A stretch of 63,421 bases of DNA, the filler included, from Octopus bimaculoides (taxonomy: Eukaryota), in NCBI RefSeq assembly GCF_001194135.2. It is 7 parts of 6 records of this genome, joined end to end, with 100 filler letters (N's around TTAATTAATTAA, not from the genome) between each part and the next. Parts side by side here need not be neighbours in the genome. Positions count along the whole stretch, not along the records: positions 16,854 to 39,442 come from NC_068986.1; positions 39,543 to 50,622 come from NC_068983.1; positions 50,723 to 56,322 come from NC_068990.1; positions 56,423 to 58,658 come from NC_069000.1; positions 58,759 to 62,048 come from NC_068987.1; 2 more parts are not named here. One strand, 5' to 3'. Shown piece after piece: positions 19,624 to 62,048 of the stretch. Position 1 is the stretch's first letter. Each line of letters starts with the position of its first letter. The position numbers were made by a program, and so were the translations under genes. The notes beneath the pieces are model-generated. The model searched no databases. It was not told where the DNA came from and was given only the letters and a program-made list of their open reading frames with translations.

Positions 19624-19733
19624 NNNNNNNNNNTATATATATATATATATACATACACACATATGTTAAATAAAATGAGACAACAAAACCAAGGCTGTGT
19701 GGAATTTAGAGGACATTTATAAAGAGAAAGGTA

Positions 19734-19781
19734 GTCTTACAGCTGTTTCTGGGATATTTGGAATATCCCTTCATCAGAGAA
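19734..19781 (-). ncRNA. Minimal type I hammerhead ribozyme motif (left arm)
   Basis: Minus strand: tct-CTGATGA-a-gggatat-tccaa-atatccc-a-GAAAC-agct-GTA-agac. Stem II 7 bp, palindromic AGCT loop III, GUA triplet, stem I 3 bp. Confidence 0.75.
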
Positions 19782-19861
19782 GATATGAGCGAGTTAACTA
19801 GAGGGAAATAGTAGAATTCAATATAAGTTACTATTTCCCTCTAAGTTAACTCTCTCATATC

Positions 19862-19909
19862 GTCTCTGATGAAGGGATATCCCTAATATCTCAGAAACAA
19901 CTGTAAGAA
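19862..19909 (+). ncRNA. Minimal type I hammerhead ribozyme motif (right arm)
   Basis: gtct-CTGATGA-a-gggatat-cccta-atatctc-a-GAAAC-aact-GTA-agaa. Stem II has one G-U pair and loop III is no longer palindromic. Confidence 0.7.
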
Positions 19910-20209
19910 TACCTTTCTCTTTATAAATGTCCTATAAATTTCACACAGCGTTGGTTTTGTTGTGTCACCTTATTCAAAATATACATGCTCACATAACACC
20001 CCCATTACACTCCTCACTCGTATTATTATCGAACCAAGACTCTAACTACGGTCCTCCTGTAGCACTTACATAGCCTTACCTGCCATCTTGGGTCTTCTGG
20101 ATACCAATACCTCTCATGTAAGCATATATGTATGTATAAACACACACACACACATACATATATATACATATATATATATAACACAGTAAAGTTGTAAGAT
20201 ACCGCACGA

Positions 20210-20254
<45 letters not shown>

Positions 20255-20550
20255 NNNNNNNNNNNNNNNNNNNNNNNNNNNNNNNNNNNNNNNNNNNNNN
20301 NNNNNNNNNNNNNNNNNNNNNNNNNNNNNNNNNNNNNNNNNNNNNNNNNNNNNNNNNNNNNNNNNNNNNNNNNNNNNNNNNNNNNNNNNNNNNNNNNNNN
20401 NNNNNNNNNNNNNNNNNNNNNNNNNNNNNNNNNNNNNNNNNNNNNNNNNNNNNNNNNNNNNNNNNNNNNNNNNNNNNNNNNNNNNNNNNNNNNNNNNNNN
20501 NNNNNNNNNNNNNNNNNNNNNNNNNNNNNNNNNNNNNNNNNNNNNNNNNN

Positions 20551-20591
<41 letters not shown>

Positions 20592-20592
20592 T

Positions 20593-20750
20593 ACGACAGC
20601 CTTCTTTCAGTTTCCGTCTACCAAATCCACCCTCAAGGCTTTGGTCGGCCCGAGGCTATAGTAGAAGACACTAGCCCAAGGTGCCACTCAGTGACACTGA
20701 ACCCGGAACCATGTGGTTGGGAAGCTAGTTTCTTACCACACAGCCATGCC
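20593..20750 (-). mobile_element. SINE family A, 5' half
   Basis: Reverse complement of the family A head and body up to the internal (TG)n. Confidence 0.8.
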
Positions 20751-20765
20751 TTCACCTATGTACAC

Positions 20766-20823
<58 letters not shown>

Positions 20824-22060
20824 CACATGATATACACAAGACCATATATACATGCATAAATATATGAATATGTCATGCCATCCGTTTTTCACTCCATGGT
20901 GAAATTGTAGGAGTCCCGTCATAACAGATGACGTATTTCTTGACACTTTTAGATTTGGCAAGGTCCAGTCTTTTCCGGATCTAAGCAGAATAGATTTGTA
21001 TAAGGAGGGAAAGCGAAAGAGAGAAAAAGTAAGAGAATGAGAGAAATCAACCTCGGTACAGAATTGGTAATGTATCGGTGAAAGACAAAGATGGCGCTCG
21101 ACAGCATTTGAACTCAGAGAATAGGGAACCGGAACTCTTAACTGCAAAGCAATCTATCCTATGCTCTCTATCTCTCTCTATTTATCTATCTGTCGAGTGG
21201 TTGGTTGTGTGAATTCTTTTACATTATTGCATGGGTATATGGTTATACTGTAGAAGATGTGCGTTGTATTATTTTGTTGGGTGATTATTGTATGAAATAT
21301 GTTTGGCTTGTTATACAGAACCTGCACCATGCATACTGCTGAATTTATAGTGTCTTGCTCAGGGTATATGAATTTGTCTAGAAGCATTATTTTTTGGACT
21401 ATGCGTAAAGTTGCTATGATTTTTACATTTATGTTCATATTCCAATGCTTCAGTTGTTATTGGTCCTGTTTTTAACATTTGTAACCCTCATCATGTTTTT
21501 TCCCTTATTTCAAGATCCTTGTATTTCAATAGTTTCTCAACATCCTTCCGGGTTATTGTCGTCGTCGTTGTTGTTATTAATATTATTATTATTATTGAAA
21601 TATTTTTATAGGTAAGAGGTATATATTGACGAACGGAGAATATGCCATTAATGATATATTCTATATTATTTTCTCTTTTCTATATTGGCATTCCTCCTTA
21701 AATTTCGCGTTCATTTTTTGTTTATCTTATTTCAATACACATACAGATACAAACGCATGCACACACAGAGTAATACATTTACACATACGCTTACACACAA
21801 GTACATGTACATAATAAGACACATACATATAAAAATACATATATATAAAATCCGAATACAAGATCCATCGAATGAAAATCTTAGAAATGTATATAAATGT
21901 GTAAAATGGATAGCTGCATACAGCTATACAACATCATAAGGACTATTAATATATAAAGGAAGACGAAAAATGAATATTCATGGAATGTGTGTATGTTAGT
22001 AGGTACGTATGTATGTGTATGCATGCTTGCATGTACGTGTGTATATATTTTCGAATGCAT

Positions 22061-22105
<45 letters not shown>

Positions 22106-22336
22106 NNNNNNNNNNNNNNNNNNNNNNNNNNNNNNNNNNNNNNNNNNNNNNNNNNNNNNNNNNNNNNNNNNNNNNNNNNNNNNNNNNNNNNNNNNNNNNN
22201 NNNNNNNNNNNNNNNNNNNNNNNNNNNNNNNNNNNNNNNNNNNNNNNNNNNNNNNNNNNNNNNNNNNNNNNNNNNNNNNNNNNNNNNNNNNNNNNNNNNN
22301 NNNNNNNNNNNNNNNNNNNNNNNNNNNNNNNNNNNN

Positions 22337-22367
<31 letters not shown>

Positions 22368-23852
22368 GTGTGTGCATGTGTGAATGTGCGTGTACAGATA
22401 TGCATGCATAGACATAGGTAACAGAAAAACTACAGCACAAAAATAATATATTTAGAGATGGTGAAATGAACTCTACCCCACCAAAAACAAAAAGAAGCAA
22501 GAGAAAGACTATATACATGTGTGTGTGCATAACTAGTCTTCCCTCCTCCATTTATGTATATCTATATCTGTGAATATATACATATACGCGTATGTATATA
22601 TATGTGTATATTTGTATGTACATGTACCATGCACACACACATACGTATGAGTACGTGTGTGTATGTATGTATATTAGAAGGGAAGGAAGATAAGAAGTGG
22701 GTGAAAATTAGGATTAGGACCAGAAAGAGGGAAAAAATGGTGAAGGGTAGATGGCAAAAAATGGGGACAAGATCCAAAGTACAAAACAGGAAATGAATCT
22801 CAATAAGCAGATATGTGAATATGAAAGTGAAAGAGTTAATATGGACGCAACTTACATATATGTATGTGTGCGTGTGTGTGTGTTTGTGTGAAGGTGTGTG
22901 TGTGTGAGTGGGTGTAGGTGTGTGAGTGTGTGTGGGCGTGTGTGTGTGTATGTGTGTGAGTGGTGTGGGCGCGCGTGTGTGTGTGTGTAGGCGTGTGTGA
23001 GTATGCATGTGCATATTAGACATATGTATTGCATATNNNNNNNNNNNNNNNNNNNNNNNNNNNNNNNNNNNNNNNNNNNNNNNNNNNNNNNNNNNNNNNN
23101 NNNNNNNNNNNNNNNNNNNNNNNNNNNNNNNNNNNNNNNNNNNNNNNNNNNNNNNNNNNNNNNNNNNNNNNNNNNNNNNNNNNNNNNNNNNNNNNNNNNN
23201 NNNNNNNNNNNNNNNNNNNNNNNNNNNNNNNNNNNNNNNNNNNNNNNNNNNNNNNNNNNNNNNNNNNNNNNNNNNNNNNNNNNNNNNNNNNNNNNNNNNN
23301 NNNNNNNNNNNNNNNNNNNNNNNNNNNNNNNNNNNNNNNNNNNNNNNNNNNNNNNNNNNNNNNNNNNNNNNNATATATATTTATTTATATATATATGTAT
23401 ATATATATATATATATGTATATATATAAATGGATATATACATGTGTGCGTGTGTGTCACTGTGTATGTGTGCGTATGCATATATACATAGGTATAAGGAA
23501 ATGAACAGAGAATAGTAAAAATTTCACCTCATCAAATACAACAAAATTTACAAATTAACAAATATAAAATTATACCTCGTCATTGCTCAAGTACCTCTCT
23601 CTCTCACACTTACACGCACTCTCCCGCGCTGTCTCTCACTCTCTCCCACTCTCACTGTTTCCTAATATCCTTCTACTGACCGATCAGTAAACCTTTCTTG
23701 TAACAACAGTAGCAATAACAACAGTATTAGAATATATTTTCTTTGTCTTGTATGTAGGTGAGTGTCTATTTGTGGTTTAATTTTTGTATTTTATTTTTTA
23801 TTTTTCTCATTCTTTTCTCCTCCTACTGATTTTACTTCTCCCTTCTTCCTCA

Positions 23853-23859
<7 letters not shown>

Positions 23860-23887
<28 letters not shown>

Positions 23888-24073
23888 CTTCTTCTTCTTC
23901 TTCCCCCATCACTCTGTTCTTTTTGTCGTAACCGTTTCCTTTTTAGAATCTTTGAGGAAACCATAAAACTGAAGAGAAGGAACTTGCTCTTAGTTGAGCA
24001 ACAGAGGCAAAGTAAGGGCCGGGTGTGAGAAAAAACAAACAAATAAAACAACAACAACAACAACAGCAACAGC

Positions 24074-24163
<90 letters not shown>

Positions 24164-24830
24164 AAGAATAGCAAACAACACCAAAACAAAAATAACAAAG
24201 AAACGACAATGCAACAACAACAGTAATAACATAGACAACAATAGCAATAACCAAACATCTGCGACGACGACAATAGCAGCACAAAAACAAAAAAACAAAC
24301 AAAAAAAACAAACAAAAAACAAAACAAACAATTTCAGTAATAAGAAAAGCTAACATCAATATTATCATAAAATAACAATAATAACGGGAACAACGTTTTA
24401 ACGTCAACAATAACGGCAGCAACAATAACAACAACATTTGTAAAACTGGAAGCAAGAACATACAGGGAAGTTTTATTTTTTACGAATGAAACAGATGATA
24501 AGATATATTTTATTGGTCGTAGACGATGATGATGATGACGATGATGGTGGTGATGACGACGATGGTGATGATGATGAAGATGTTGTTGATGGTGGCAATG
24601 ATGTTGTTGGTGGCGATGATACTGTTAATGAAGGTGGTGATGACTATGATGATGATGACGATGATGATGAAGGTTGTAGTGATCTTGATGGTTATGGTTA
24701 CGTTTGCTGCGGTGGTGATTGTGACGATTATGATGGCATTGATGATCAAGCTAAGGAGGAAGGAGAAGAGGAAGGGGAAGAGGTGGAGGAAGAGGAGGGG
24801 AAGAGGTAGGAGAAATAAAAGATGATGATG
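23860..24830. repeat. Compound trinucleotide tract (GTT/CTT, AAC/ACT, GAT/GGT, GAG)
   Basis: Directly visible. Confidence 0.9.
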
Positions 24831-25661
24831 GTGACGCTTTGTTGAATTTGCAAAAAAAAAAAAAGAAGAAAAAAGTCACCAAAGTCAACAAGGCAATCCG
24901 AGCCAACGCGGTAGATTTTACATGATCGTTCAATTTGTCAATTCACCCTCAAACGATACCTTAATACTCTGATAGAAAAACTCGTTATAATAATGTTATC
25001 TAGGGTACACCATTTCTGAAAATTGGCGAAATTTCTAGATCATTAAAGTGTTTGGTAAATTTCCTCGAGGTAGTTGTCGCAACTCACTTCACTCTGAGTT
25101 CGTATACCATCGAGGTTGACATTGCCCTTCATCCACTCAGGATGTTACAGATTGGAGAAACTGCTAGAGGATCTGACGATATGTCTTGTGGTATTTGTTC
25201 TCGCTCTTTGTGTTCTGGAAACATCTGCGACCTTAGAATTACCATCGGTGATTAGGAGAGGAAACTTGCATGCGTGAGAAACTGCCCGTCTTCCTAAAAA
25301 ATCTTACTCCAAGTCCGCACATGCATGTGCGGATGTATGAAACACACACACACACACACACAGACACACACACATACACAGAGGCACAAACATACACACA
25401 TACACACACACAGAGGCAGTCACACACACACATGCACCTCCCCCACACATTCACACACACGAATGATATTCAGTAGTGGGGAAACTATGGAAAGAGTTTG
25501 GATGCATTATACTTATTTTTTGTGCAATTGATTTAAACCTCTTCCATTCCCATTGAGTGTCTTTAGTGATGTCTACTCTGCTGCAAGCATTTGGATTAGG
25601 TCTCAAGTCTAAGGACATTATATGTTGAGGAAGGAAGTGATTGCCTTTGACTCTTTTACAG

Positions 25662-25736
25662 GAACTCCGGTGAGAAAGAGAGAAGTTAACCTCACGCGGA
25701 GACCCGGCCCGAATCCTTCCAACAGAGTGAATTCAA
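25662..25736 (+). other. Candidate 75-nt symmetric (phase 1-1) exon
   Basis: CTCTTTTACAG acceptor and AA/GTAAAG donor; one open frame, TPVRKREVNLTRRPGPNPSNRVNS. No homolog recognised. Confidence 0.25.
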
Positions 25737-25774
25737 GTAAAGGTGCCCGAAGTGTCAGATGGTGGTGTTAAACA

Positions 25775-26020
25775 GGGTGTTGTGTTAAGTCTTTCACCCC
25801 AGTAGGTCATGGCGGGATTTGAACTCAGAACGCAAAATTCCCTGAGCGATGTACTGCAAAGCGTCCGGTCCGATATTCTTACTGTCCCGTTAATCCACCG
25901 CTTTGGATTAATTATTACTTTTTTTATTGAACCCAAAAGGACGAAAGATTAAGTTGAACTCGGCTGGATCTGAATTCAGAACGCAGAGCCGTAATAAATG
26001 TTGTGAAGCTACCCGACCCT
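25775..26020 (-). mobile_element. Degenerate SINE family B fragments
   Basis: GGATTTGAACTCAGAACG and GGATCTGAATTCAGAACG cores. Confidence 0.5.
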
Positions 26021-27882
26021 GTAATGACGGCCAATTCGCAGGATTTCCATGAGTTGTAGTTTCTTCGATCAATTTCAGCCCGTCTCAGGGACTCAGCAAA
26101 AAAGTCATAGATGATGCTTTTCCTCTTCCATCGAAACCCTAAAAACAAAACAAAACGAAGCTCAATATGAATGATTTTTGTATGAATTTATATATGAAAG
26201 AATATATTTTGCTATTCTTGAAGTTTTTAAGTTGTACAGGAGACGATGCCAAATTATGTGACAGGGTATTTGGCCCCTCCCAATCAATAAATAAATATAT
26301 ATATAAAATCTAAAAATCTAAAATAAATGAAATAATATAAAAATTAGAAACGAAATACATAAACAAAATAACATAAAAATTTTAAATAGAATAAATGAAT
26401 AACAAGTTAGAACCATTGGGACATTTTGTTTTCTAGACTTTTAGCTATCTTAATCCGTATGATATAACAGCCTGGGACATGATTTACGATTCGATTTATT
26501 TTTAATACCCAAGAAGAAAACCTCAGCAAAGTAGCAATAAATAAATAAATAAATAAAAATTAAAAAATTAAAATAGATAAAAATAAATATCGAATTTTTC
26601 ATTTGACTAACTCTGTTTTACATTAATTTTCTTTCAGAGAGAAAATAAATCTAAATAAGTAAAAGTAAAAAACTAAGGCAGAAAAATAACATATGCATAT
26701 TATTAATTATCTTTTTTGTCCATGTTTGTGCTTTTGCAAAAATATATATTTACCGCTAATACTTGGGCGGTATCGCTGTATGTTGGAGCTTATTTCGATT
26801 TTGAAAGTGTTGAACTATTAAGAAGCAATTTTATCCTGGCGAGGATACAAAAGTAACGCAATAACTTGTATGAGCTAGCTTAACCAACAAGAAATAGTTG
26901 CCAGATTTCTCTCTAATCATACTTTACCCAATCGTGATGAAAAAGGAAGGGCATGTTAATTAGAGAAATTCAGATGCCATTGCGTAAAAACAGCTAAGCT
27001 CAGTTTGGAAGACCTCTGATAAAAAGTCTGCTTGAAATGAGATGTTTGATAGCGGATGGTAAATAGCAGCAGCAATAACAACAAAAACAACAGCAGCAAC
27101 ATCAACCCAGCAGCCGCCTGTCTGTTATGAATATTTTTAGTTTAATCATCTGGAGGTATGTATGGGCTTGGTAGCTTCAAGATATCGAATCACACCTTAA
27201 TTGCCCTAATTATTCCTGAATCAATCTTGTCGAGATACTAGTGTGTCCCTCTGCTAACCTGTGGATCAGTGTATTTCGTCATCGACGTTGTAGCGGCTCC
27301 TCGCATAAATATTTAATTCTCAACAAACCACTTCAATTAGCTATGAATGAGAGTCATACAAAGGAACTGCTAACTTTGTTGCTGTTGTTTCGCTCCAGGC
27401 TTTCTTTAGTTGATAAGATCAATGATCAAAGGCGTCCAGCCATGACTGGCGCATCTCCTTTTATTTACGTAAATCACTTAAAGAACTAAGTTAACCAATG
27501 TGTCTTTTCTTCATTAAGATACTATAGTATGCAGTGAAGGAATTTCGGTTGCTATTTCAAGCGGGTCGTGTGAACGCGTAGAAGTCTCCTTCGTTGCCCC
27601 TCCGTTTGCCTTTATAGGTCGTGAGTGAATTATATAATTGCCGATAATTTCGTCTGCTTTTGGTGTTTAATATATTTTTTTCATAAATCCGGATCGGAAG
27701 AAAACAATAAAAAGCAATGCCAGTATATTTTTCTAGAAGATGGATAATTCCATCATTTGCTATCAACAAAGCTAATTAAAATAAGTAAACTAATTCTATC
27801 ATAAATGGCTATATATTCCATAGACATTTGTATTCTAGACGTATTTGTTAGGCAGAATAAGTGAAAGATATTGTATGAGTGT

Positions 27883-27916
27883 GCAGGCGTGGCTGTGTGG
27901 TAAGAAGTTTGTTTCC
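27883..27916 (+). mobile_element. SINE family A head stub, cut at the start of the LINE-like sequence
   Basis: GCAGGCGTGGCTGTGTGGTAAGAAGTTTGTTTCC, then unrelated sequence. Confidence 0.6.
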
Positions 27917-28653
27917 TGTAAACCAGAGTGGACGTGAGATTGATGCGCTCCGGTCATTGAAAGGAAAAAAGAACAAAAACAGAGAAGGTCGGCGAGGTAG
28001 GTGATTTTGTTTTATCTGAGCTGGGCGTAATTTGTTATATTGTAATTTTTGTTAATAAATTTCGTACAGCTCTGGGACAATTTCGCCTGCTCTCGGTGGC
28101 TGCTGTTTTTGTATATTGCAAATTCTTTGGATTCGCCCGAATGAGTGGAATCTGATACAGTTGCTGTTGCAGTTACCGTTGGCTGTAACCTGTATTCGTG
28201 TTTGGATTTATTGGATTTATTTTACCAATTACCGGAAAAAGAGATTCTCGCCAAGGACCCTATCCACAGCGGCCGGGAGTACCTGTTGTCCAGGAAATTG
28301 GATTTTTGCTGTGTTTTTTTCTCCGTCTACCATTCCTGATTTTTCTTTCTTTTTGAACTGTTTATTTATTTTCTGGATTTCTTTGTCTTATTTTTTTTTT
28401 ACTGTTCTGTTAACTGTTTGTGTATCTTTTTACTTTTGAACTTTTTTCTTTGACCTTTCTTTGAACTTTTAAGACTTATTTCTTTTTGCACATGGCAAAA
28501 ATAAACAGTGCCGCTGCTTTGGAGTGGGAGGTGGTCCCACCCAAACATTGGATTAAAGATCTTGAGAAGAGGACGGTGGTACTACGGACCTATTCCAGGT
28601 CGCGAGATGCCATCGCCCTCTTCGACAAGAATGTGATAGAGGAAGAGTTAGCA
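27917..28653 (+). mobile_element. Tx1/L1-like LINE 5' UTR and ORF1 start (copy 1, runs into gap)
   Basis: T-rich UTR, then MAKINSAAALEWEVVPPKHWIKDLEKRTVVLRTYSRSRDAIALFDKNVIEEELA, which aligns with the ORF1 of copy 2. Confidence 0.5.
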
Positions 28654-28784
28654 NNNNNNNNNNNNNNNNNNNNNNNNNNNNNNNNNNNNNNNNNNNNNNN
28701 NNNNNNNNNNNNNNNNNNNNNNNNNNNNNNNNNNNNNNNNNNNNNNNNNNNNNNNNNNNNNNNNNNNNNNNNNNNNNNNNNNNN

Positions 28785-40642: not shown

Positions 40643-41172
40643 GTGGAGGCGCAATGGCCCAATGGTTAGGGCAGTGGACTCGCGGTCATAGGATCGCGGT
40701 TTCGATTCCCAGACCGGGCGTTGTGAAAGCTCCACGAGGCTCCGGCAGGGGATGGTAGCGAACCCTGCTGTACTCTTTCACCACAACTTTCTCTCACTCT
40801 TACTTCCTGTTTTTGTTGTTCCTGTAATTCAAAGGGTCAGCCTTGTCACCCTGTGTCACGCTGAATATCCCCGAGAACTACGTTAAGGGTACACGTGTCT
40901 GTNNNNNNNNNNCTCCGGCAGGGGATGGTAGCGAACCCTGCTGTACTCTTTCACCACAACTTTCTCTCACTCTTACTTCCTGTTTTTGTTGTTCCTGTAA
41001 TTCAAAGGGTCAGCCTTGTCACCCTGTGTCACGCTGAATATCCCCGAGAACTACGTTAAGGGTACACGTGTCTGTGGAGTGCTCAGCCACTTGCACGTTA
41101 ATTTCACGCGCAGGCTGTTCCGTTGATCGGATCAACTGGAACTGTCGACGTCGTAAGCGACGGAGTGCCAAC
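40643..41172 (+). mobile_element. tRNA(Arg-like)-headed SINE family C with 16-bp TSD
   Basis: GTGGAGGCGCAATGGCCC..GGTTTCGATTCCC head; TSD ATATGATATATAACAC at 40623-40638 and 41187-41202. Internal about 170-bp duplication across a 10-N gap. Confidence 0.88.
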
Positions 41173-42411: not shown

Positions 42412-43801
42412 ATCATAAAAGAAAACTTAATTGTCTGCTGTACTAGGACACATCATAGGAGAGGAAGCATTTGAGCTACAAAAGAATAGGAAGCAAGGCA
42501 CCTTAAATTAGTTCATTGGTCAGCTATTTTTCAGGAAAAGAACAGCACTAAGGTATCATCTCTTCGGATTATAAAAATTTCAGTGCATGTCATCAGGCAG
42601 TTGCTGGTAGTTGAAGCATCAGTAAAGCACTAAGCAAAATGTCTCGCGGTATCGCATGAGTTTCAATATGTTATGCTTTCATATAGCTCTGAGACCAACC
42701 TGATATTTGAATATTATATCAGCACAACTTTGCTATCAGGTTTTCGTTGTGTTACTGCGCAGCCCTCCAAACTGTATGACTAAGGTTTGATCGCTGATTG
42801 ATGTAGGAGAGTTTCTGGAACTACTGTCTATTCTGTCAGGAAAAAATACTCAAATATTGAGTGAAAAATTAGTCATGCAACATCATCATGAGAAAATTTA
42901 TGGACCATCGTAAAATTCTCCGCCTCATCTCTCTCGCTCTTTCTCTCTGTTTCACTCACTCTGTACACGCACGCACACACACACACACACACATATATAT
43001 NNNNNNNNNNNNNNNNNNNNNNNNNNNNNNNNNNNNNNNNNNNNNNNNNNNNNNNNNNNNNNNNNNNNNNNNNNNNNNNNNNNNNNNNNNNNNNNNNNNN
43101 NNNNNNNNNNNNNNNNNNNNNNNNNNNNNNNNNNNNNNNNNNNNNNNNNNNNNNNNNNNNNNNNNNNNNNNNNNNNNNNNNNNNNNNNNNNNNNNNNNNN
43201 NNNNNNNNNNNNNNNNNNNNNNNNNNNNNNNNNNNNNNNNNNNNNNNNNNNNNNNNNNNNNNNNNNNNNNNNNNNNNNNNNNNNNNNNNNNNNNNNNNNN
43301 NNNNNNNNNNNNNNNNNNNNNNNNNNNNNNNNNNNNNNNNNNNNNNNNNNNNNNNNNNNNNNNNNNNNNNNNNNNNNNNNNNNNNNNNNNNNNNNNNNNN
43401 NNNNNNNNNNNNNNNNNNNNNNNNNNNNNNNNNNNNNNNNNNNNNNNNNNNNNNNNNNNNNNNNNNNNNNNNNNNNNNNNNNNNNNNNNNNNNNNNNNNN
43501 NNNNNNNNNNNNNNNNNNNNNNNNNNNNNNNNNNNNNNNNNNNNNNNNNNNNNNNNNNNNNNNNNNNNNNNNNNNNNNNNNNNNNNNNNNNNNNNNNNNN
43601 NNNNNNNNNNNNNNNNNNNNNNNNNNNNNNNNNNNNNNNNNNNNNNNNNNNNNNNNNNNNNNNNNNNNNNNNNNNNNNNNNNNNNNNNNNNNNNNNNNNN
43701 NNNNNNNNNNNNNNNNNNNNNNNNNNNNNNNNNNNNNNNNNNNNNNNNNNNNNNNNNNNNNNNNNNNNNNNNNNNATACGCATATGTTAAATGAATTCTT
43801 T

Positions 43802-43893
43802 TATTTCCGACATATGTTTCGAAGATTACAAATGGTTCCTTCCAAATGAATAAGTGATGTTGATAAAGATGTAATCTTCTCTTCAGGGAAATA
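43802..43893 (-). ncRNA. Type I hammerhead ribozyme, canonical core (left arm of palindrome)
   Basis: Minus strand reads tatttcc-CTGAAGA-gaagattaca-[39 nt loop]-tgtaatcttc-GAAAC-atat-GTC-ggaaata. Stem I is 7 bp perfect, stem II is 10 bp perfect, stem III is 2 bp closed by the palindromic tetraloop ATAT, and the cleavage triplet is GUC. All core nucleotides are intact. Confidence 0.9.
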
Positions 43894-43966
43894 CATAGGA
43901 ACCAGCTTAACCGTAAGACATTTTAACATTCGGTTAAAATGTCTTACGGTTAAGCTGGTTCCTATG

Positions 43967-44058
43967 TATTTCCTTGAAGAGAAGATTACATCTTTATCAA
44001 CATCACTTATTCCTTTGGAAGGAACCATTTGTAATCTTCGAAACATATGTCGGAAATA
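43967..44058 (+). ncRNA. Type I hammerhead ribozyme with C3U substitution (right arm of palindrome)
   Basis: tatttcc-TTGAAGA-gaagattaca-[39 nt]-tgtaatcttc-GAAAC-atat-GTC-ggaaata. Same as the left-arm copy except C3 to T at 43974 and one change in the stem II loop. Confidence 0.8.
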
Positions 44059-44429
44059 AAAGAATTCGTTTAGCATATGCGTATTACTCCATTTATATAT
44101 ATATATTATAGACTTGAATATTATAAAGTCATACTTTAACAATCTTATAATTCCATCACGACAATGGTTGTCTAATTGTCTAATATTTATATATATTCAT
44201 ACGTATGTATAGAGGTATTCATGTATGTATACACATACATACATACATACATACATACATACATACATACTCACGTACACGCATACATATATATATATAC
44301 ATACATACTTACACATACACACACACATACACACACACCTATTGCAAGATTATCTAATGCTTGGTGGTTGCTTTTTATCAGCGTTATTTGACGGGCAGTT
44401 TTCTTCTTCAAACGCCTGACAGAATCGTA

Positions 44430-52215: not shown

Positions 52216-52367
52216 AAAAAAGAAAAAAAGAAAAAAAGAAAAAATATATGTTGAGTTTATTAAACCACATTGACTTGCACAAAATACCAGTTCAATTTTT
52301 TAGTAGATATTTAACATTAATTCTAGAATAAACATGAAATTCAATTTCGCAATTAAAGAGTCAACTA

Positions 52368-53216
52368 CTGTAACCCCTCGCCATATCGGGGTCCACTTAT
52401 CGCAGTTTGCCTATCGTGGTTCACCTATCGCGGTTTATTATTTAAGCTTACGTAAGGCGACGAGCTGGCAGAAACGTTAGCACGCTGGGCGAAATGCTTA
52501 TCGATATTTTATCCGTCATTACGTTCCGAGTTCAATTTTCGCCGAGGTCGACTTTACCTTTCATCCTTTCGAAGCCGATAAATTAAGTACCACTGAAACA
52601 GTGGGGGTTGGTGTAATCGACTTGTCTCCTCTCCCAAAAATTGCAGGCCTTGTACCTATAGTAGAACGGATTGTCGTGGTTCACCTATCGCGGTTTATTA
52701 ACTAAACTTACGTAAGGCGGTGAGCTGGCAGAATCGTTAGCACGCCGGGCGAAATGCTTATCGATACTTCGTCTGTCTTTACGTTCTGAGTTCAAATTCC
52801 GCCAAAGTCGACAATGCCTTTCATCCTATCGGGGTCGATAAATTAAGTACCAGTTACGCACTGGAATTGATGTAATCGAATTAATCCCTTTGTCTATCCT
52901 TGTTTGTCCCCTCTATGCTTAACCCCTTGTGGGCAATAAAGAAATAAGAAACGTTAGCATGCCGGGCGAAATGCTTCGCACTATTTTGTCTGCCGTTACA
53001 TTCTGAGTTCAAATTCCGCCGAGGTCGACTGTGCCTTTCATCCTTTCGGGGTCGATAAATTAAGTACCAGTTGCGTGCTGGGTCGATCTAATCGATTTGC
53101 CTCATCCCCAAAAAATAATTTTAAAATATACAGTACAGTATTGTTTCTACTTCGCGGATTTTCATCTATCGCGGGGATTTTGGAACGTAACACACGCGAT
53201 AGTCGAGGGATTACTG
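52368..53216. mobile_element. Tigger/pogo-type MITE interrupted by stacked SINEs
   Basis: TA at 52366-67 and 53217-18. Imperfect TIRs CTGTAACCCCTCGCCATATCG / reverse complement CAGTAATCCCTCGACTATCGCG. About 180 bp of core remains after removing SINEs. Confidence 0.65.
52453..53110 (+). mobile_element. SINE family B monomer plus dimer stacked inside the MITE
   Basis: Monomer 52453-52670; dimer about 52715-53110 with linker 52882-52946. Confidence 0.85.
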
Positions 53217-53477
53217 TAGATTCATAATTGTTTTGTTTTTGTTAGTTTTGTTGTTGTTGTCGTCGTCGTCGTCGTTTTGTTCCTCTTTTTCTTTTTTCTT
53301 TCTTCTCACCATCACAGTCCTGTAGAGCAGTTAAGAAACGCTTTTTCCTCCCCTTACACTCAGCATTGTTATGCATTGCTAAGAGTTAAGTCCCTTCAAG
53401 AGAGCCATAGTGACAAGCTCCCCAATCTACCCAATCTACCTAATCTATTTAAACAGTGAGCATTTATAAATGCTCAC

Positions 53478-53820
53478 CGACTTTGCCTTTCATCCTTTCG
53501 GGGTCGATTAAATAAGTACCAGTTACGCACTGGGGTCGATATAATTGACTTAATTTCTTTGTCTGTCTTTGTTTGTCCCCTCTGTGTGTAGCCCCTTGTG
53601 GGCAGTGAAGAAATAAGAAACGTTAGCACACCGGGCGAAATGCTTCGCACTATTTTGTCTGCCGTTACATTCTGAGTTCAAATTCCGCCGAGGTCGACTG
53701 TGCCTTTCATCCTTTCGGGGTCGATAAATTAAGTACCAGTTGCGTACTGGGTCGATCTAATCGATTTGCCTCCTCCAAAAAAACTTCGAGCCTTGTGCCT
53801 AGAGTAGAATAGAATATATT
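53478..53820 (+). mobile_element. SINE family B dimer, 5'-truncated
   Basis: Partial monomer, linker 53551-53615, second monomer with GCCTTGTGCCTAGAGTAGAA tail. Confidence 0.85.
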
Positions 53821-53849
53821 ATTTGTGGTTTCAAGTAAACAAAAAGGAC

Positions 53850-54244
53850 TATTCTCTTTTACTCTTTTACTTGTTTCAGTCTTTTGACTGTGGCCATGCT
53901 GGAGCACCGCCTTTAGTCGAGCAAATCGACCCCAGGACTTATTCTTTTGTAAGTCTAGTACTTATTCTATCGGTCTCTTTTTGCCGAGCCGCTAAGTTAC
54001 GGGACGTAAACACACCAGCATCGTTTGTCAAGCGATTTTGGGGAGACAAACACAGACACGCAAACATATACACACACATACATATATATATAAACATATA
54101 TACGACGGGCTTCTTTCAGTTTCCGTCTACCAAATCCACTCTTCTATAGTAGAAGACACTTGCCCAAGATGCCACGCAGTGGGACTGAACCCGGAACCAT
54201 GTGGTTGGTAAGCAAGCTACTTACCACACAGCCACTCCTGCGCC
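53850..54244 (-). mobile_element. SINE family A, near full length and well preserved
   Basis: Clear reverse complement of the family A consensus. Confidence 0.85.
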
Positions 54245-54848
54245 TATTAACAAAAAATAATATTTTCGGTTTTTATCATGTAATACCCATATCCAACTGT
54301 AAATGTTGAACTCTGGTTAATAATTTCCTCTAAGCAATAAATGCAAATATCAAACAGCTAAACGGGAAGAGACGAGGAGGTAAAGTATAAGGGAAACAAC
54401 TTTGATTCTCATGAGTTATCTCACCATATCTTAGTTTTTTGAGATGCCAGGAAAGGGAGGTCGAGTTTAAACACTTGATAGATACGATATATCGTAAAAC
54501 AAGCAGTGAGCCTTGTACAAACATTAGAAGAAGCAACACAGTAACACATTTGGCAAAATTCTGGTTTAACCATCCCATGTAACTCCTCATAACTTCTTTT
54601 ATTTTTGTAAATTTCAAAAAAGTTTTGCCAATTTGTGTTCTACGCACGGAAATTCATAAGATTATGCAAAACAAAATTTTTTCTTAATTTTATGAACCCC
54701 CACTTCCTTCCATAATCCTAAAATTTCCACTGTTTGCAAATTTTTATTTTTTATTTTATTTATTTATTATTATTATTTTTTTTTTTTTTTCATTCAAAGT
54801 TTAAAATAGGGACAGTCCGAATCTTCATGCCTAATCTACAAATATGTA

Positions 54849-55230
54849 TGTTGGCACTCCTTCGCTTACGACGTCAAGGGTTCCAGTTGATCCGAACAAC
54901 GGAACAGCCTGCTCGTGAAATTAACGTGCAAGTGGCTGAGCACTCCACAGACACGTGTACCCTTAACGTAGTTCTCGAGGATATTCAGCGTGACACAGTG
55001 TGACAAGGCTGACCCTTTGAAATACAGGCACAACAAAAACAGGAAGAAAGAGTGAGAGAAAGTTGTGGTGGAAGAGTACAGCAGGGTTTGCCACCATCCC
55101 CTGCCGGAGCCTCGTGGAGCTTTAGGTGTTTTCGCTCAATAAACACTCACAACGCCCTGTTTGGGAATCGAAACCGCGATCCTATGACTGCGAGTCTGCT
55201 GCCCTAACCACTGGGCCATTGCGCCTCCAC
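54849..55230 (-). mobile_element. SINE family C, full length with 10-bp TSD
   Basis: TCTACAAATA at 54835-54844 and 55231-55240. Confidence 0.9.
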
Positions 55231-55428
55231 TCTACAAATAAATGTAAATGGCATTGTACACATACAAGAAACATAAGAAGAAATGCCAACGGGGCCAATT
55301 AATTAAAGGCAGCATATATAACAAATTGAAATTGACTCCAGTATATTACTGTTACTCATTTTACAGTTCACAGAATGATGACAACTTGAGTTGACTTAGG
55401 CTGGACTTCGACTTACTACTACTACTAC

Positions 55429-55459
<31 letters not shown>

Positions 55460-56050
55460 CACACATTATAGCACAGGGAATAAATACATTATGAATATGG
55501 TACCGTTGGCTGAAGGCTGCAGGCAGCAAGCCTGCTACTCATGTATGACTCCAGGAGTTCCAACAAAACTTGATAAAAGAAAAATAGTAATAATAAATTC
55601 GTAACAGTTGCATACATGAAGAGAACATGTTGGGGGTCTCCGAAACTGTGACTCTTCAGCCAACTAACTACAAGAGAGAGAGAGAGAGAGGGGGGAGAAG
55701 GAGAGAGAGAGAAAGAGAGAGAGAGAGAGAAGGAGAGAGAGAGAGAGAGAGAGAAGGAGAGAGAGACACAGAGAGAGAGACACACAGAGAGAGAGACACA
55801 GAGAGAGACAGAGAGAGAGACAGAGAGCCATATGCATTGTTTATCGATTTCTAATTAAATAAAGCCGTTATTTAAATGTAGCCAACTTGAAAGTGATAGG
55901 TAGTTCCAATATGGTAGAAGGGGGATAACAAAAACATACCCTGTTGCTTTCCAGCCGTAATATCATGGCCATCACTAAGACGAAGAGCTGTCCTAATACC
56001 ATCCAATGTGCATTCTCAAACAGCTTTTGCTGTCTCTGTAGTTGTAACCA

Positions 56051-56322
56051 GTGGAGGCGCAATAGCCCAGTGGTTAGGGCAGCAGACTCGCGGTCATAGG
56101 ATCGCAGTTTTGATTCCCAGACCGGGCGTTGTGAGTGTTTATTGAGCGAAAACACCTAAAGCTCCAAGAGGCTCCGGCAGGGGATGGTAGCGAACCCTGC
56201 TGTACTCTTTCACCACAACTTTCTCTCACTCTTACTTCCTTTTTCTGTTGTGCCTGTAATTCAAAAGGTCAGCCTTGTCACATTGTGTCACGCTGAATAT
56301 CCCCGAGAACTACGTTAAGGGT
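56051..56322 (+). mobile_element. SINE family C, truncated by gap
   Basis: High identity to the other family C copies. Confidence 0.88.
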
Positions 56323-56422
56323 NNNNNNNNNNNNNNNNNNNNNNNNNNNNNNNNNNNNNNNNNNNNTTAATTAATTAANNNNNNNNNNNNNNNNNNNNNN
56401 NNNNNNNNNNNNNNNNNNNNNN

Positions 56423-56457
<35 letters not shown>

Positions 56458-56775
56458 TGCTCCCTGTCCCAATTAGACGTACTCCTTCACCTTATTTTAA
56501 TCGTTTGCTACAGAAATGTCCCCTTGTGCTACGTTTATGGACAGCATGCCTATATATAATAAACGTGTGTGTGTGTTTGATATATAAATGTATGCATACA
56601 CACACATAAACACGTAAATGTTTATACGTGTGTTATATCTGTGAGAGTTGATTATATGAACGTACGTAGAAATTTATTGTCTTTTATTAAAGCAATGTCA
56701 TTTGGTGTGTTTATTTTAAGAGGAAAATACTATAAGGAAACACTCTCGCTCATAAATAAGTGTATAAGTTTGTAA

Positions 56776-56840
<65 letters not shown>

Positions 56841-56848
56841 CGTATATG

Positions 56849-56886
<38 letters not shown>

Positions 56887-56890
56887 TACG

Positions 56891-56940
<50 letters not shown>

Positions 56941-56958
56941 TATATGTATATGTTTGTG

Positions 56959-56993
<35 letters not shown>

Positions 56994-57534
56994 ATATACA
57001 TATATGTATGTATATATAGACATGCATGTGTACGTATACACGCATGTGTGTGTATGTATATCCAAGAGGGTAAATAAAATGTTAAAAAATTTTTGGTAAT
57101 TTTCCAAACATGGGTGGCCTGTTGTTATTGCTGTTATTGTTGTTGTTCTTTTTTGTTATTGTTAGTGTAGTTGTGGATGTTGCTATTGTAGCTATAATTC
57201 CCTTTGTGCTTGAAGTTTTTATTATTGTAGTAGCAGTAGCAGCAGTAGTAGAGGTTATTGCTGTAGTTGGTGTTGTAGTGTCTAAACTAATAATCCAGTT
57301 TTGTTATTTTAAATTTTCAATTGTTGTTGTTTAGTCTTTCTTTACCCCTCAGTTCTTTAAGTCAAAGTTAATTAGTGTCGGTGGTGGTGGTCGTGGAAGG
57401 AGGTGCTGGCGACGGTTGTGGTGCTGGTGTTCTGAGGATGGGTCGGGAGTGATGGTGGTGGTGATGGTGTTGGTGTTGGTAAGGGGTGGGTGACGACGGC
57501 GGTGGAACAGCATGGACTAAAATATTGAAGTGAA

Positions 57535-58263
57535 GTGGATAGAGAGAGAGAGAGAGAAGTACAGAGAGAAGGAGAGAGAGAGAGAGAGAAGGAGCGAGGG
57601 AGAAGGAGATAGGGAAGGAGAAAGAGAGAAGGAGAGAGAGAGAGGAAGATTGATTTATCAGTAAGAAGATGGAGGTTGGCGGCGTGGTTTGTTTGGGAGA
57701 GAGAGAGAGGGAGAGAGAGAGAGAGGGAGAAAATGGCAGGGAGAGTGGGAAAGATATAGTGATGGAAAAGAAATGAAAGAGGGGGAAAGAAAGAGAAAGA
57801 GAGAGAGAGTCTGTGTGTGAGAGAGTGAGAGAGAGAAAAGAAAGATAGAAAGATTGTGAAGGAGAGGGTGGGGGTGAGATAGAGAGTGGCAGTGATTGTA
57901 TGATATAGAGAGAAGAAGCAAGATGGAAAGAGAGGGAGAGGGAGAGATAACGAGAGAGGAGAGGGAGACAGAGGGAGAGGAATTATGAGAAAGAAAGAAA
58001 AGAGATATAGAGAGGGTAAAGACAGAAAGGTAGTGGTAGAGAGAGAGAGAGAGAGACGAAGAGAGCAATAGAGATAGAGAAAAAAAGACAGAGTGAGAGA
58101 AAGAGGGAAGGTGAGAAGATGAATGAGAATGAAGAAGAGAAGGAGGAGAAATTAGAAGAGAAAGAAAGAGAGGTTATGATAGAAGAAAAGGGAAGAAGAA
58201 CGTGGAATGGGAGCGTGTGTATGAGAGAGAGAGAGGGGGGGGAAATATGTGCGAAAGAGTGAC

Positions 58264-58315
<52 letters not shown>

Positions 58316-58320
58316 AAGAA
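57535..58320. repeat. Long polypurine (GA)n-derived tract
   Basis: Directly visible. Confidence 0.9.
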
Positions 58321-58758
58321 TAGACTGAAAAACAACGAAAAATGGAAGCAAACAATACAAAAACAAAAAATCAACAAAAAATTAAGACCTAAAAATGAAG
58401 ACGAAGACGAAAGCATATTAAAATGACATTTTTTTAGTGGAAAATATGACAAGGGAATAGCAATGAGGTTATTTTCGCTTCTCCATGTCGTCTGCTGGTG
58501 TGGGTGAGCAGACGAGGGGAGGGGATTGGATGGTAGTGATATACAATTGTTTGTGTTTGTGGTCCTTGAAGGAACAGTAGGTTGTATTGGTTCGGGTGGG
58601 ATAAAGGAGAGAAGATGTGTAAGAAAAGGGGCGATGCTTGAGGGTGTTTGAAGTATGGNNNNNNNNNNNNNNNNNNNNNNNNNNNNNNNNNNNNNNNNNN
58701 NNTTAATTAATTAANNNNNNNNNNNNNNNNNNNNNNNNNNNNNNNNNNNNNNNNNNNN

Positions 58759-58814
<56 letters not shown>

Positions 58815-58815
58815 T

Positions 58816-58870
<55 letters not shown>

Positions 58871-58940
58871 AATATTAATAATGATGATGATGATAATGAT
58901 AATAACAACAACAACAACAACAACAACAACAATAATAATA
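58759..58940. repeat. Compound (TAA)n-(TGA)n-(AAC)n microsatellite
   Basis: Directly visible. Confidence 0.95.
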
Positions 58941-59439
58941 ATAGAGAGAACCTTGTAGCAGACCCTTCCTTTCCCATTTCGTTTCTGACAATGGACTAGA
59001 AACTGTCCTCTGACACTTAATGGCTTGGTCATGGGAGCGATAAAGCACCCAGCACTGGCTGTTGTGTAGTTGCTGTTGTTGTTGATGAATACAAAATGAC
59101 AGGATCAAATATGACACCCAGATACTCGTTACGAGATCAGAATATTGGCCTATGGTCAATGTTGTTGTTACTGCTGCTGCTGCTGCTGTTGTTGTTGTTG
59201 TTGTTGTCGATGCTTCCTCTTTGTTCTTTTCTCTTGTTGATATTGTTATGGTGGTGGCGGCGGCGGTGGAGGTGGTGATAGCCGTGGGTTTTTGTTATTC
59301 TAAAGCATTAAATAAAAAAATAAAAATGTCATATCTTGTGATATTCTATGCGAATTTTCTCTTGTGATAAGACCTTTTACCATAATGACATGTATATGAA
59401 CTAGCTGTCACACACACATATATATATGTGTATATATAT

Positions 59440-59513
<74 letters not shown>

Positions 59514-60144
59514 ATAATTATATATATGTGTATGTATGTATGTATAGATATATGCATATATATGTATACCCATAAATATATATATTCATACATGATCACA
59601 CACACACATGCATAATGCATATTTGTACACATTTATATCTGCGCCTATACCTCTGCATGTGCATGTGTGCATGCATGCGCATGTGTATGTGTCCTTGTAT
59701 ATTCCTACAAACATGTCAATTTATTGATTTCATTCCATCAGTTAAATATTGAACCCTTCCCAGCGTTTTCTCTCTCTCCTTCTCTCTCTCTCTCTCTCTC
59801 TCTCCATCTATCTATCTATCTGTCTTAATTTTTCTTTTGCACATTCTTTCTGTTTTTCCTTTCTCTTCTTCCATCTTATTGTTCCTGTTGCCGTTGTTGC
59901 TGTCGTGAGCTATCATGAGCTGCTGCACAATTAAAATTCTTGAGCTCTAGTTCCCTCCAGATGTTCTGAAGAACAGGATCTTGAGCAAGACATGAGCAGG
60001 GTGGCCAGTCTCATCCTGAAAAGGACGAATCAGAAGCAATCTCTGAAAAAGACAAACAGACATGGCAAATATGTATGCCACGTCTGTCATACACTGTCAC
60101 CTGATCATTGTACCTTGCTCCTGTGTACATCTGACCAGATTCTT

Positions 60145-60282
60145 CTATTCCTTTGCTTGTTGCAGTCATTTGACTGTAGCCATGCTGGAGCACTGCCTGC
60201 TAGTCAAACAAATCGACCCCAGGACTTATTCTTTGTAAGCTTATTACTTATTTGATCGGTCTTTTTTTCCAAGCCGCTAAGT
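60145..60282 (-). mobile_element. SINE family A, 3' part abutting the Tigger fragment
   Basis: CAGTCATTTGACTGTAGCCATGCTGGAGCA..CGACCCCAGGACTTATTCTTTG. Confidence 0.75.
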
Positions 60283-60876
60283 GAGGGTGGCCAGGAGCAT
60301 TATCTAAGATAAGTAAGACCTTAAAAGGAATCCCCTTCTCCTTATAGTACTTCTCTGTTGCTGGGATAAAATGATTGAAGAACCAATCTTCAAAAACAAC
60401 AACAGTAACCCATGTTTTTGAATTAGCCAAGGGAGAGATACCTTGGGTATGTTCTTCAGAGCACGGGGATTGTGTGCATGATACACAAGCAATGGCTTTA
60501 ACTGAAAATCTCCTGCACAATTACCTCCCAGCATAATGGTCACACATTCTTTTGAAACCTTGTAGCCTGGAATAGTTTTCTCCTCCTTGGAGATGAATGA
60601 ACGGTCTGGCAATTTTTTCCAATACAATCCAGTTTCATCTATGTTTTAAATCTGTTTGGAAAGAAACCCGTTTTCTTCCATGATTTTCTTTAATGCATTA
60701 TGAAATTCTGCCACTGCTTGTTCGTCAGCTGATGCACTTTCACCTTGCTTCTTAATGGAGTGATAACTTCTTCGCTCCTTAAATAGCATGAACCATCCTT
60801 GACTTGCCTTGAACTCTACATCTTTCTCATCTGAATATTTTTTCTTCAGGTCCTCAAACAAAGACAAAGCTTTCAT
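60283..60876 (-). pseudogene. pogo/Tigger transposase fragment (CENP-B-type HTH plus DDE_1 domain)
   Basis: FKASQGWFMLFKER..GESASAD..QI*NIDETGLYWKKLPDRSFISKEEK..GGNCAGDFQLKPLLVY..WVT..FEDWF..LLILDNAPGHP, with a stop and a frameshift. Confidence 0.88.
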
Positions 60877-61083
60877 TTAAATATATATAAGCATGTCTAG
60901 ATATGCATCTATATCCATGAGAAGACATACATAAAGCAAAACATACAAATCTGCACATATACATACAAACAAAAATAGCCTGTTGTTGATGTTGAAATTC
61001 CAATGAAGGAGCCTTGGATCTTGGTTAGAAATTGATTCTATCTCTATTGGCAAGAAATCACGAAATAAAACTGAACAATGACA

Positions 61084-61120
<37 letters not shown>

Positions 61121-61404
61121 ATAATAAGGATTCAGATAAAATTGGGTACTTAAAAAAATATGCACCAGGTAGGGTTGTATAAACCTGTGGTTCCAGCTTA
61201 TGGTTGGTAAGTATCAAATAGGATATTACGGTTGTGAATATAGAGAAAACCAACCCTACGGGTATTTAGTGCCTGGGGGCTGGTCCAAAGCATACGTTAT
61301 GTTGATTGTACATTGTTGGTATACTCCAGAGTGCTTGGCGTGTCGTAAATCCTTATGGTGTATTATAATCAAATGAATAATAACAGACGGTGAATAATTG
61401 TCAG

Positions 61405-61457
61405 CTCATTCCAGCCGTTTCTTACTTCATTGCAAAAAACTGTAATCATCAGATGAA
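61405..61457 (-). ncRNA. Degenerate hammerhead-like motif (probably inactive)
   Basis: Minus strand: ttcat-CTGATGA-ttac-[16 nt]-gtaa-GAAAC-ggct-GGA-atgag. Stems I and II pair, but the GUH triplet is GGA. Confidence 0.4.
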
Positions 61458-61724
61458 ACGTAATTTCAAAAACAAAAGCATATCTCAAGAATACAGCAGG
61501 GACGTGGCTGAAGTCTGTCGAGGCGTATCATGAAATGGAAGAATGACCAACAAAACTGGCCATTGTGGGCATTAAGGGGTAGAGTTAGGTTAAAAATTTA
61601 CCTTGTGAGAGGGTGTAATGTGAAATTTATCGTGATGGAATAGGAATCAGCTAGACTGGTTCTTTCTGAGGCTAGAGATGAGGTGTGTTCTTGGGATAGC
61701 CTTTTCTTTTTAAAATTGTGTCGT

Positions 61725-62048
61725 ATTTACATTATTTACATTTGACAGATATTTGTCCTCATCTTGTTTGTTGTTAACACAACGTTTCGGCTGATATACC
61801 CTCCGGCCTTCATCAGGTGTCTTGGAGAAATTTCGAACCTGGGTTTTCATTCCTAAGGTATTTTTTGATGTTATTATTATTATTATTATTCAGGTCACTG
61901 CCTGAAATTGAACTTGGAATCTTGGGGTTAGTAGCCCGCACTCTTAACCACTGCACCATATGCCTGTGGGCATATGGCATGGGCTACTAACACCAAGATT
62001 GTAAGTTTGATTCCAGGCAGTGACCTGAATAATAATAATAGTAATAAT
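61725..62048. mobile_element. Head-to-head tRNA-like SINE pair with (TAA)n and downstream hammerhead
   Basis: Inverted repeat about 61880-61964 / 61969-62048 around TGTG. Each arm reads ggcatatgg(tgcagtggttaagagtgc)gggctactaac.ccaagatt..aagtt..att.caggcagtgacctg(aat)n with A-box and B-box-like motifs. The left arm continues into the hammerhead; the right arm runs into a gap. Confidence 0.7.
61776..61821 (-). ncRNA. Minimal hammerhead ribozyme motif with loop-less stem III
   Basis: Minus strand: gacac-CTGATGA-a-ggccg-gagggtatat-cagcc-GAAAC-GTT-gtgtt. Stem I is 5 bp (one G-U), stem II is 4 of 5 bp, and stem III is reduced to self-complementary ACGU. Confidence 0.65.

Follow-up and report, generated by a model that had tools for sequence, protein, structure and literature searches.

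How did three unrelated sequences of an octopus genome come to carry hammerhead ribozymes in one and the same outward-facing arrangement? The stretch of DNA that raises this question, referred to below as the window, comprises 63,421 nucleotides, filler included, joined from 7 parts of 6 records of the Octopus bimaculoides assembly GCF_001194135.2, and is repeat-rich animal DNA in which microsatellites and gaps are plentiful. Self-BLAST of the window reports three palindromes, E1 (window positions 19661-19982), E3 (43776-44084), and E2 (61724-62048), the sequences of which are unrelated, save for a terminal motif common to E1 and E3 (16 of 18 positions). An earlier note on this DNA had presented the three as inverted dimers of one shared architecture, and knew of no description of such a system in cephalopods. 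We find that E1-E3 are probably short insertions made by the proteins of Penelope-like elements (PLEs), each consisting of two 5′-truncated copies of an element 3′ end joined head to head, and that their layout is known PLE anatomy in new families, not a new system. Inverted head-to-head pseudo-long terminal repeats (pLTRs), hammerheads within pLTRs, opposite-strand pairs, and activity restricted to dimers are all in print (PMC4209133, PMC8557442, PMC3846280, PMC6765202). In particular, PMC4209133 reports minimal hammerheads in the pLTRs of PLEs, inactive as monomers and weakly active as dimers, as well as hammerhead pairs on opposite strands 100-700 bp apart. No paper describing the E1-E3 families in cephalopods was found in the literature searched, and a report on Penelope families of O. 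vulgaris is silent, in its main text, on hammerheads or palindromes (PMC13282606).

A search pattern for hammerheads (CUGANGA, then a stem II of 3 bp or more, GAAAC, a loop of 0, 2 or 4 nt, GUH, and a stem I of 3 bp or more) matches the window four times, always within E1-E3, at minus 19777 (loop AGCT), plus 19866 (AACT), minus 43886 (ATAT), and minus 61816 (no loop), and returns no match in any of 150 local dinucleotide shuffles. These are genuine minimal type I hammerhead motifs: four have intact cores, with CUGANGA...GAAA and NUH accompanied by stems I and II, and a fifth carries a C3-to-U change. They share traits published for the minimal hammerheads of PLEs, namely a loop III that is palindromic or absent and, in part, a bulged base after CUGANGA. 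The bulged base after position 9 and the G10.1-C11.1 pair are both found in E2, E3 has G10.1-C11.1 and no bulge, and in E1 stem II is flanked by an additional A on either side. Loop III is AGCT, ATAT or none, as the earlier note had it, in the left arms, but the plus arm of E1 has been mutated to AACT and is not palindromic.

E1 proper covers 19664-19978, with arms 88% identical and a spacer of ~15 nt that is part of one arm. Its left hammerhead (19733-19781, minus strand) has a stem II of 8 bp plus the extra A on each side, a stem I of 3 bp, and a predicted cut at 19738/19737, while the right one (19862-19909, plus strand) is predicted to cut at 19905/19906. The arms of E3 are 97% identical around a 5-nt spacer, and its left edge adjoins an assembly gap (43001-43775) that hides the true ends. 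The left hammerhead of E3 (43802-43893, minus strand; stem II of 10 bp with a 39-nt loop, stem I of 7 bp) has its predicted cut at 43809/43808, and the right one (43967-44058, plus strand), with C3 changed to U at 43974, is likely impaired. The E2 hammerhead (61776-61821, minus strand) has a bulged A, a stem I of 5 bp, and a predicted cut at 61781/61780. Of note, on the minus arm of E3 the 8 nt directly 5′ of stem I (43897-43904) are perfectly complementary to 43833-43840 in loop II, a match reached in 35 of 5000 shuffles and mirrored on the plus arm; it may represent a pseudoknot contact or an inhibitory fold.

We derived a covariance model from 55 minimal hammerheads unrelated to those of the window. 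It recognizes E2 (E=8e-8), gives the left arm of E1 just E=0.62, as this arm has an additional A ahead of G12 and a stem I of only 3 bp, and in its search of the window detects neither the right arm of E1 nor E3, which have a long stem II. Because the model is weak on the left arm of E1 and blind to E3, these two elements are variant hammerheads, with uncertain activity. The covariation in our alignment A1 is partly built in, its rows having been picked for pairing. One further match to the model (18082-18119, E=0.003) was discarded as it is devoid of stem II. Rfam at gathering scores reports neither a hammerhead nor a tRNA in the window, and the matches it does return are chance microRNA resemblances to microsatellites and hairpins. 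Folding of single arms gives non-significant z-scores and predictions from which the hammerhead fold is mostly absent, and the best predicted duplex is not the catalytic dimer. The exact motifs of the three families have no match in metagenome, viral or prokaryote genome contigs. Finally, the long inverted "arms" reported by a first repeat search were mostly N runs and microsatellites, and were set aside.

Concerning orientation, the left-arm hammerhead lies on the minus strand in all three elements, as the earlier note had stated. Three left arms on the minus strand have a 1-in-8 probability by chance, and the window alone is not enough for an orientation rule. The note's plus-strand hammerhead on the right arm is intact in E1, whereas the E3 motif, present at the expected place, has lost C3. 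Likewise, the outward inverted dimer is complete in E1 and E3 and partly visible in E2, the right arm of which runs into a gap (62049-62148) ahead of any second hammerhead, so that its second ribozyme is presumed; the visible E2 inverted repeat (61871-62047) leaves the hammerhead outside. The distance from cleavage site to outer end, given by the note as 30-70 nt, is corrected to 75 nt for either arm of E1 and 57 nt for E2; in E3, where the gap at the left edge sets the limit, it is 33 nt or more.

The proposed origin is in keeping with what is known of PLE integration. Inserted PLEs are described with an inverted, 5′-truncated copy adjoining their 5′ end and, often, a 30-40 bp tail at one end (PMC8557442), head-to-head being their most frequent form (PMC3846280). 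The PLE protein of the anole cuts and extends both target strands, with reverse transcription initiated at two positions that mark the limits of the tail; hammerhead cleavage is dispensable in vitro, and no RNA-seq ends fall at the cut (PMC11167929). If we assume that the same events produced E1-E3, the PLE endonuclease would nick both target strands ~10-17 bp apart, and each nick would prime reverse transcription close to the 3′ terminus of the RNA, often at differing start sites, such that both target junctions would be element 3′ ends. The two complementary DNAs would stop early and be joined at their 5′ ends. Because priming would put element 3′ ends at both junctions, a hammerhead 30-75 nt inside the 3′ end would face outward on both arms, with no selection for the layout. 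The inserted dimers would likely be dead ends, the read-through hairpin hiding the ribozyme, and any cleavage would take place in a same-sense dimer, either within tandem master copies or in trans.

The evidence that outward orientation is a rule and not a chance arrangement comes from a comparison set. A generic minimal-hammerhead pattern was scanned over metagenome contigs, yielding at least 106 loci; from the 106 listed, one was removed for its label (105 left) and 19 as structurally weak, leaving 86 loci in 45 sequence families. These share no sequence with E1-E3 past a trinucleotide run. Among the 86 loci listed, an inverted partner lies on the outward (upstream) side in 43 and on the inward (downstream) side in one, a direct copy is found in three (direct tandems may be under-assembled in these contigs), and 43 have no partner. 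Restricted to listed loci that have 500 bp or more of sequence on the side in question, the proportions are 32/47 outward versus 1/57 inward (Fisher p=3e-14), and by sequence family, among the matches listed, 17/27 versus 1/29; the 19 weak loci among these matches have six outward partners and one inward. Outward dimers are the commonest state of minimal hammerheads in the comparison set, counting by sequence. PMC4209133 deems most motifs single, in contrast with the half of our listed loci (43/86) in which a search by sequence finds an inverted partner. Since only 6 opposite-strand pairs among the matches listed fit the exact pattern on both arms, motif-only searches undercount dimers.

The junctions of the comparison dimers bear the marks of insertion. 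Within one family, the distance from core to centre is 31, 32, 36, 43, 58, 62, 64, 82 or 142 nt, and within a second family 35, 74, 102, 112 or 118 nt, with fixed outer ends in both; it spans 14-218 nt across the set and is 44, 44 and about 150 nt (E2) in the window elements. A common extension of ~30 nt, found in four families and called at a score cut-off of 40, is present on one arm alone in 16/20 dimers, on both in 2/20 and on neither in 2/20. Simple arithmetic gives ~0.006 for 16/20 under an independent 50% choice per arm, and this one-arm bias provides a testable constraint on the priming of two strands by PLEs. Of the 16 one-arm-tail dimers, 8 lie between direct repeats of 12-17 bp, as compared with mismatched controls that reach 12 bp in 2/240; one copy of the duplication adjoins the short end of the dimer and the other copy its long end. 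These variable fold-back points, one-arm tails, and 12-17 bp duplications are the reason to consider that the dimer is likely formed afresh at every insertion. At one locus, L079, the hammerhead follows the end of an open reading frame (ORF) by ~100 nt on the same strand; the Atlas clusters nearest to this ORF (score 0.96-0.97) carry HTH_animal, plus GIY-YIG in 13-14% of members. We take this ORF, from its motifs, to be the C-terminus of a PLE reverse transcriptase/endonuclease (RT/EN).

Two side observations concern the same set. Loci L011, L020, L036, and L072 have at least three arms, with direct and inverted copies mixed, resembling complex PLE insertions. The one-arm tails of families F1-F4 (e.g. 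L005, L035, L003, L009) contain a similar ATGCACGG-type core, 65-100 nt beyond the cleavage site, which is a candidate RT-initiation or protein-binding motif.

Layout, motifs, and the insertion marks of the comparison set thus support the earlier note's suggestion of a Penelope-type integration product, and the membership of E1-E3 among PLEs is likely. Within the window, E2 contributes a fixed outer end with AT-rich flanks, and E1 a candidate 17-bp target-site duplication (19647-19663 and 19979-19995, both plus; 15/17 identical), a weak candidate made of microsatellite-like low-complexity sequence, the right copy of which may alternatively be the start of a one-arm tail. Several points weigh on the other side. 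E1 and E3 are atypical as minimal motifs, and the covariance model gives them poor scores or none. No RT or GIY-YIG remnant is found within the 63-kb window, which therefore ties no autonomous partner to E1-E3. The window contains a single copy of each family, the fold-back variability being seen in the comparison set alone, and the comparison loci came from one narrow pattern, many of them belonging to few families. The L079 ORF has no significant match in Pfam and NCBIfam, and a one-arm tail is not seen in E1, both arms of which stop 75 nt from the cut; in E2 and E3, assembly gaps conceal the ends at which a tail or a target-site duplication would lie.

The hammerhead-bearing tail of E2 (61724-61870, minus strand) belongs to a very abundant family: two DNA runs (X1 and X13, two organisms) supply 20,823 and 24,434 contigs that align to E2, nearly all on 61714-61867 and none covering linker, head and centre, and 497 (X1) and 533 (X13) contigs with unrelated AT-rich flanks stop at 61724, the main outer end. 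Contig depth stems from assembled contigs only and is a rough measure, not a copy number, and silent on RNA ends. At 61805, the base that prevails in the family (99% and 97%) extends stem II, and therefore the family motif is better formed than the E2 copy. In the tail, three strand-switch joints occur at single-locus depth, each at a different place. At the CpG sites 61783, 61784, 61788, and 61789 (G16.2, C15.2, G12, C11.1), ~8-18% of summed contig depth differs (X1, X13), versus ~2-3% at the nearby non-CpG sites 61791 and 61806; this divergence in and beside the catalytic core looks like neutral decay. A second B-box-like stretch lies upstream of the hammerhead (61830-61841, minus strand).

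Inward of the tail, an (AAT)n linker (61871-61890, minus strand) leads to a tRNA-like head (61893-61965, minus strand), with its A box starting at 61958 (tRNA position 8), its B-box core at 61913-61908 (positions 53-58), and position 1 at 61965. The fold-back centre (61966-61967) amounts to the 2 nt that separate position 1 of one head (61965) from that of the other (61968). The right arm (61968-62048, plus strand) repeats the head, although a deletion running through its A box has removed a net 15 nt, and continues with (AAT)n as far as the gap. The two boxes are 33 nt apart, agree with tRNA numbering, and constitute the sole match in the window to an A/B-box pattern that matched 1 of 20,000 shuffles; this pattern, a consensus from PMC8969392, was composed after viewing E2 and misses other decayed heads of short interspersed nuclear elements (SINEs). 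The CpG sites of the B box have decayed in complementary fashion on the two arms, and no T4 stop run for RNA polymerase III (Pol III) occurs within the sense unit of 242 nt. An A/B-box head at the centre is found in none of the comparison dimers, the one match in the 105 loci being 718 nt upstream. On the strength of the centre at position 1 of two heads, the box positions, the CpG decay, and the missing T4 run, E2 could, as a tentative reading, be a high-copy tRNA-headed SINE mobilized by Penelope proteins and not by a long interspersed nuclear element. It would then be a full-length, non-autonomous template with a tRNA-like head and a PLE-type tail, not a truncated one. Pol III would start at the palindrome centre and yield a sense-only RNA of 240 nt, the last part of which would be a captured PLE tail and its minimal hammerhead; the PLE RT/EN would insert full-length back-to-back dimers. 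From these would come divergent RNAs of the same sense, capable of pairing and of cleavage in trans, and many self-folding hairpins would be scattered that add to the load of double-stranded RNA (dsRNA) and adenosine-to-inosine (A-to-I) editing. If so, E2 would widen the rule on SINE partners to a third class of retroelements, and its self-folding copies would be a possible, measurable source of edited dsRNA. No Penelope-dependent tRNA SINE was found in the literature searched, a body that leaves Repbase, Dfam, and most subscription papers outside.

Against this reading, the head gets no tRNA call from ARAGORN (default) or Rfam, relaxed ARAGORN being uninformative. The right arm has lost its A box and shows no second hammerhead before the gap, and the linkage of head and tail is seen in a single copy. 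It is conceivable, if with some doubt, that E2 is a chance composite, a tRNA-SINE pair beside or inside a PLE remnant, and not one element. The (AAT)n run indeed resembles a SINE tail, the right-arm hammerhead is out of view, and no contig was shown to join head and tail. However, a chance composite accounts poorly for a fold-back centre within 2 nt of position 1 in both heads and for a sense unit devoid of a T4 stop, and long contigs track the tail as far as the linker.

Going back to all three palindromes, the main rival for the inversion step keeps the PLE origin and attributes the inverted copy to self-priming by fold-back on an antisense template, a proposal made for the junction palindromes of bdelloid Penelope elements (PMC3846280). 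Small hairpins occur at some comparison junctions, as this would have it, yet at several junctions the spacer belongs to the longer arm. The target duplications, one copy of which adjoins a short 3′ end and the other copy a long one, are as expected with both nicks priming, and extension of both strands is obtained in vitro (PMC11167929); we thus consider self-priming rather unlikely, and prefer priming from two nicks.

The palindromes could also be fixed units, i.e. miniature inverted-repeat transposable elements (MITEs) or foldback elements that were once PLE ends and whose complete unit a DNA transposase now copies, the hammerhead being merely carried along. Arms 88-97% identical, the terminal motif shared by E1 and E3 (outer left ends, 19657-19674 and 43778-43795), the symmetric, tail-less ends of E1, and the Tc1-like and Tigger-like remnants of the window would all fit. 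MITEs and palindromic Harbinger repeats (PMC8969392, PMC5625713) are likewise short, palindromic, and potential ADAR substrates. They possess, however, transposase termini and a fixed unit, features not shown for E1-E3, and the 17-bp candidate duplication of E1 matches neither the TA nor the 8-9 bp of MITE superfamilies. Furthermore, the centre differs from copy to copy in unrelated families with the same motif, and the strand-switch joints of the E2 tail lie at three different places, each at single-copy depth. Copying by a transposase is therefore improbable.

More doubtful still is the idea, going beyond what the earlier note inferred, that selection has favoured the outward dimer as a regulatory device that silences the ribozyme, feeds dsRNA to ADAR or Dicer, and permits cleavage only in trans. 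The sequestration it invokes is borne out in prediction: whole-element folds of E1 and E3 reach -203 to -251 kcal/mol and pair 87-98% of their bases, and transcription from either side meets the antisense arm first, so that read-through RNA would fold into a long hairpin hiding the ribozyme, likely as a by-product. The octopus is moreover rich in potential perfect dsRNA, and a lizard Penelope is heavily edited (PMC5625713). The claim that a transcript from either direction carries its own antisense stands for read-through RNA but would fail for E2, if internal Pol III transcription starts at the centre and copies the sense arm only. On the other hand, the insertion mechanism alone would yield this geometry, the analysis brought up no sign of processing by ADAR or Dicer, and nothing points to selection for silencing cleavage: the right arms of E1 and E3 have damaging changes, and in the E2 family the CpG sites of the core decay freely (~8-18% versus ~2-3%). 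In two presumed-RNA runs, A>G and T>C differences are not consistently above those of DNA runs, a comparison uninformative on editing as contigs drop rare variants. A device of this kind is accordingly very improbable.

Lastly, assembly artefacts at contig edges, suggested by E3 starting at a gap, E2 ending in one and E1 sitting 30 nt from another, are hardly credible, since the arms differ by 3-12%, mostly by transitions and indels, and the identical layout is found inside unrelated contigs, with target duplications.

Among known systems, E1-E3 come closest to endonuclease-bearing PLEs (Penelope/Poseidon, Neptune, and Nematis; PMC8557442, PMC3846280), which also have a hammerhead near the 3′ end and a head-to-head, 5′-truncated inverted copy, insert into AT-rich or microsatellite targets, and make a short target duplication, of which E1 has a candidate. 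They differ from these in being devoid of an ORF and in having arms of just 150-245 nt; a one-sided tail is not shown for these three copies. With the minimal hammerheads of metazoan PLEs (PMC4209133) they share CUGANGA, in part the bulged base, the palindromic or absent loop III, and the predicted necessity of a dimer, and depart from them by the extra A before G12 and 4-nt loop III of E1 and the 10-bp stem II with 39-nt loop of E3. Non-LTR retrozymes (bioRxiv 10.64898/2026.07.22.740005; PMC7761336) are also non-coding, with a type I hammerhead and a proposed dependence on PLEs; unlike the single inverted dimers E1-E3, they are head-to-tail tandems giving circular RNA, and no direct repeat of any E1-E3 arm is present in the window. 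The schistosome SINE-like elements Sm-alpha and Sj-alpha (PMC6765202) combine a Pol III-type promoter with a hammerhead, as proposed for E2. They are, however, direct tandems that lose the promoter on cleavage, whereas E2 has a PLE-type minimal motif near its 3′ end and heads back to back.

A few other repeats of the window deserve mention. An old inverted pair (2787-2996 and 3870-4079, 69% identical) displays GAAAC-AGCT/AGCC-GTA outward on both arms, with a CTGATGA at minus 2961, ~130 nt upstream, and SINE-like copies between the arms. It is possibly a fourth, decayed element, the stem II of which is not convincing. Broken remnants of DNA transposons at 60307-60645 (minus strand) and 8794-9210 (plus strand) carry DDE_1 (pogo/Tigger-like) and HTH domains (Tc1-like). 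Two SINE-like copies (54959-55231 and 56050-56322), 94% identical, inverted and 818 nt apart, have no hammerhead and are a potential source of dsRNA. A perfect 163-nt direct duplication spans a 10-N gap at 40740-41075, and is likely an assembly overlap artefact; a similar one is found at 3053-3147.

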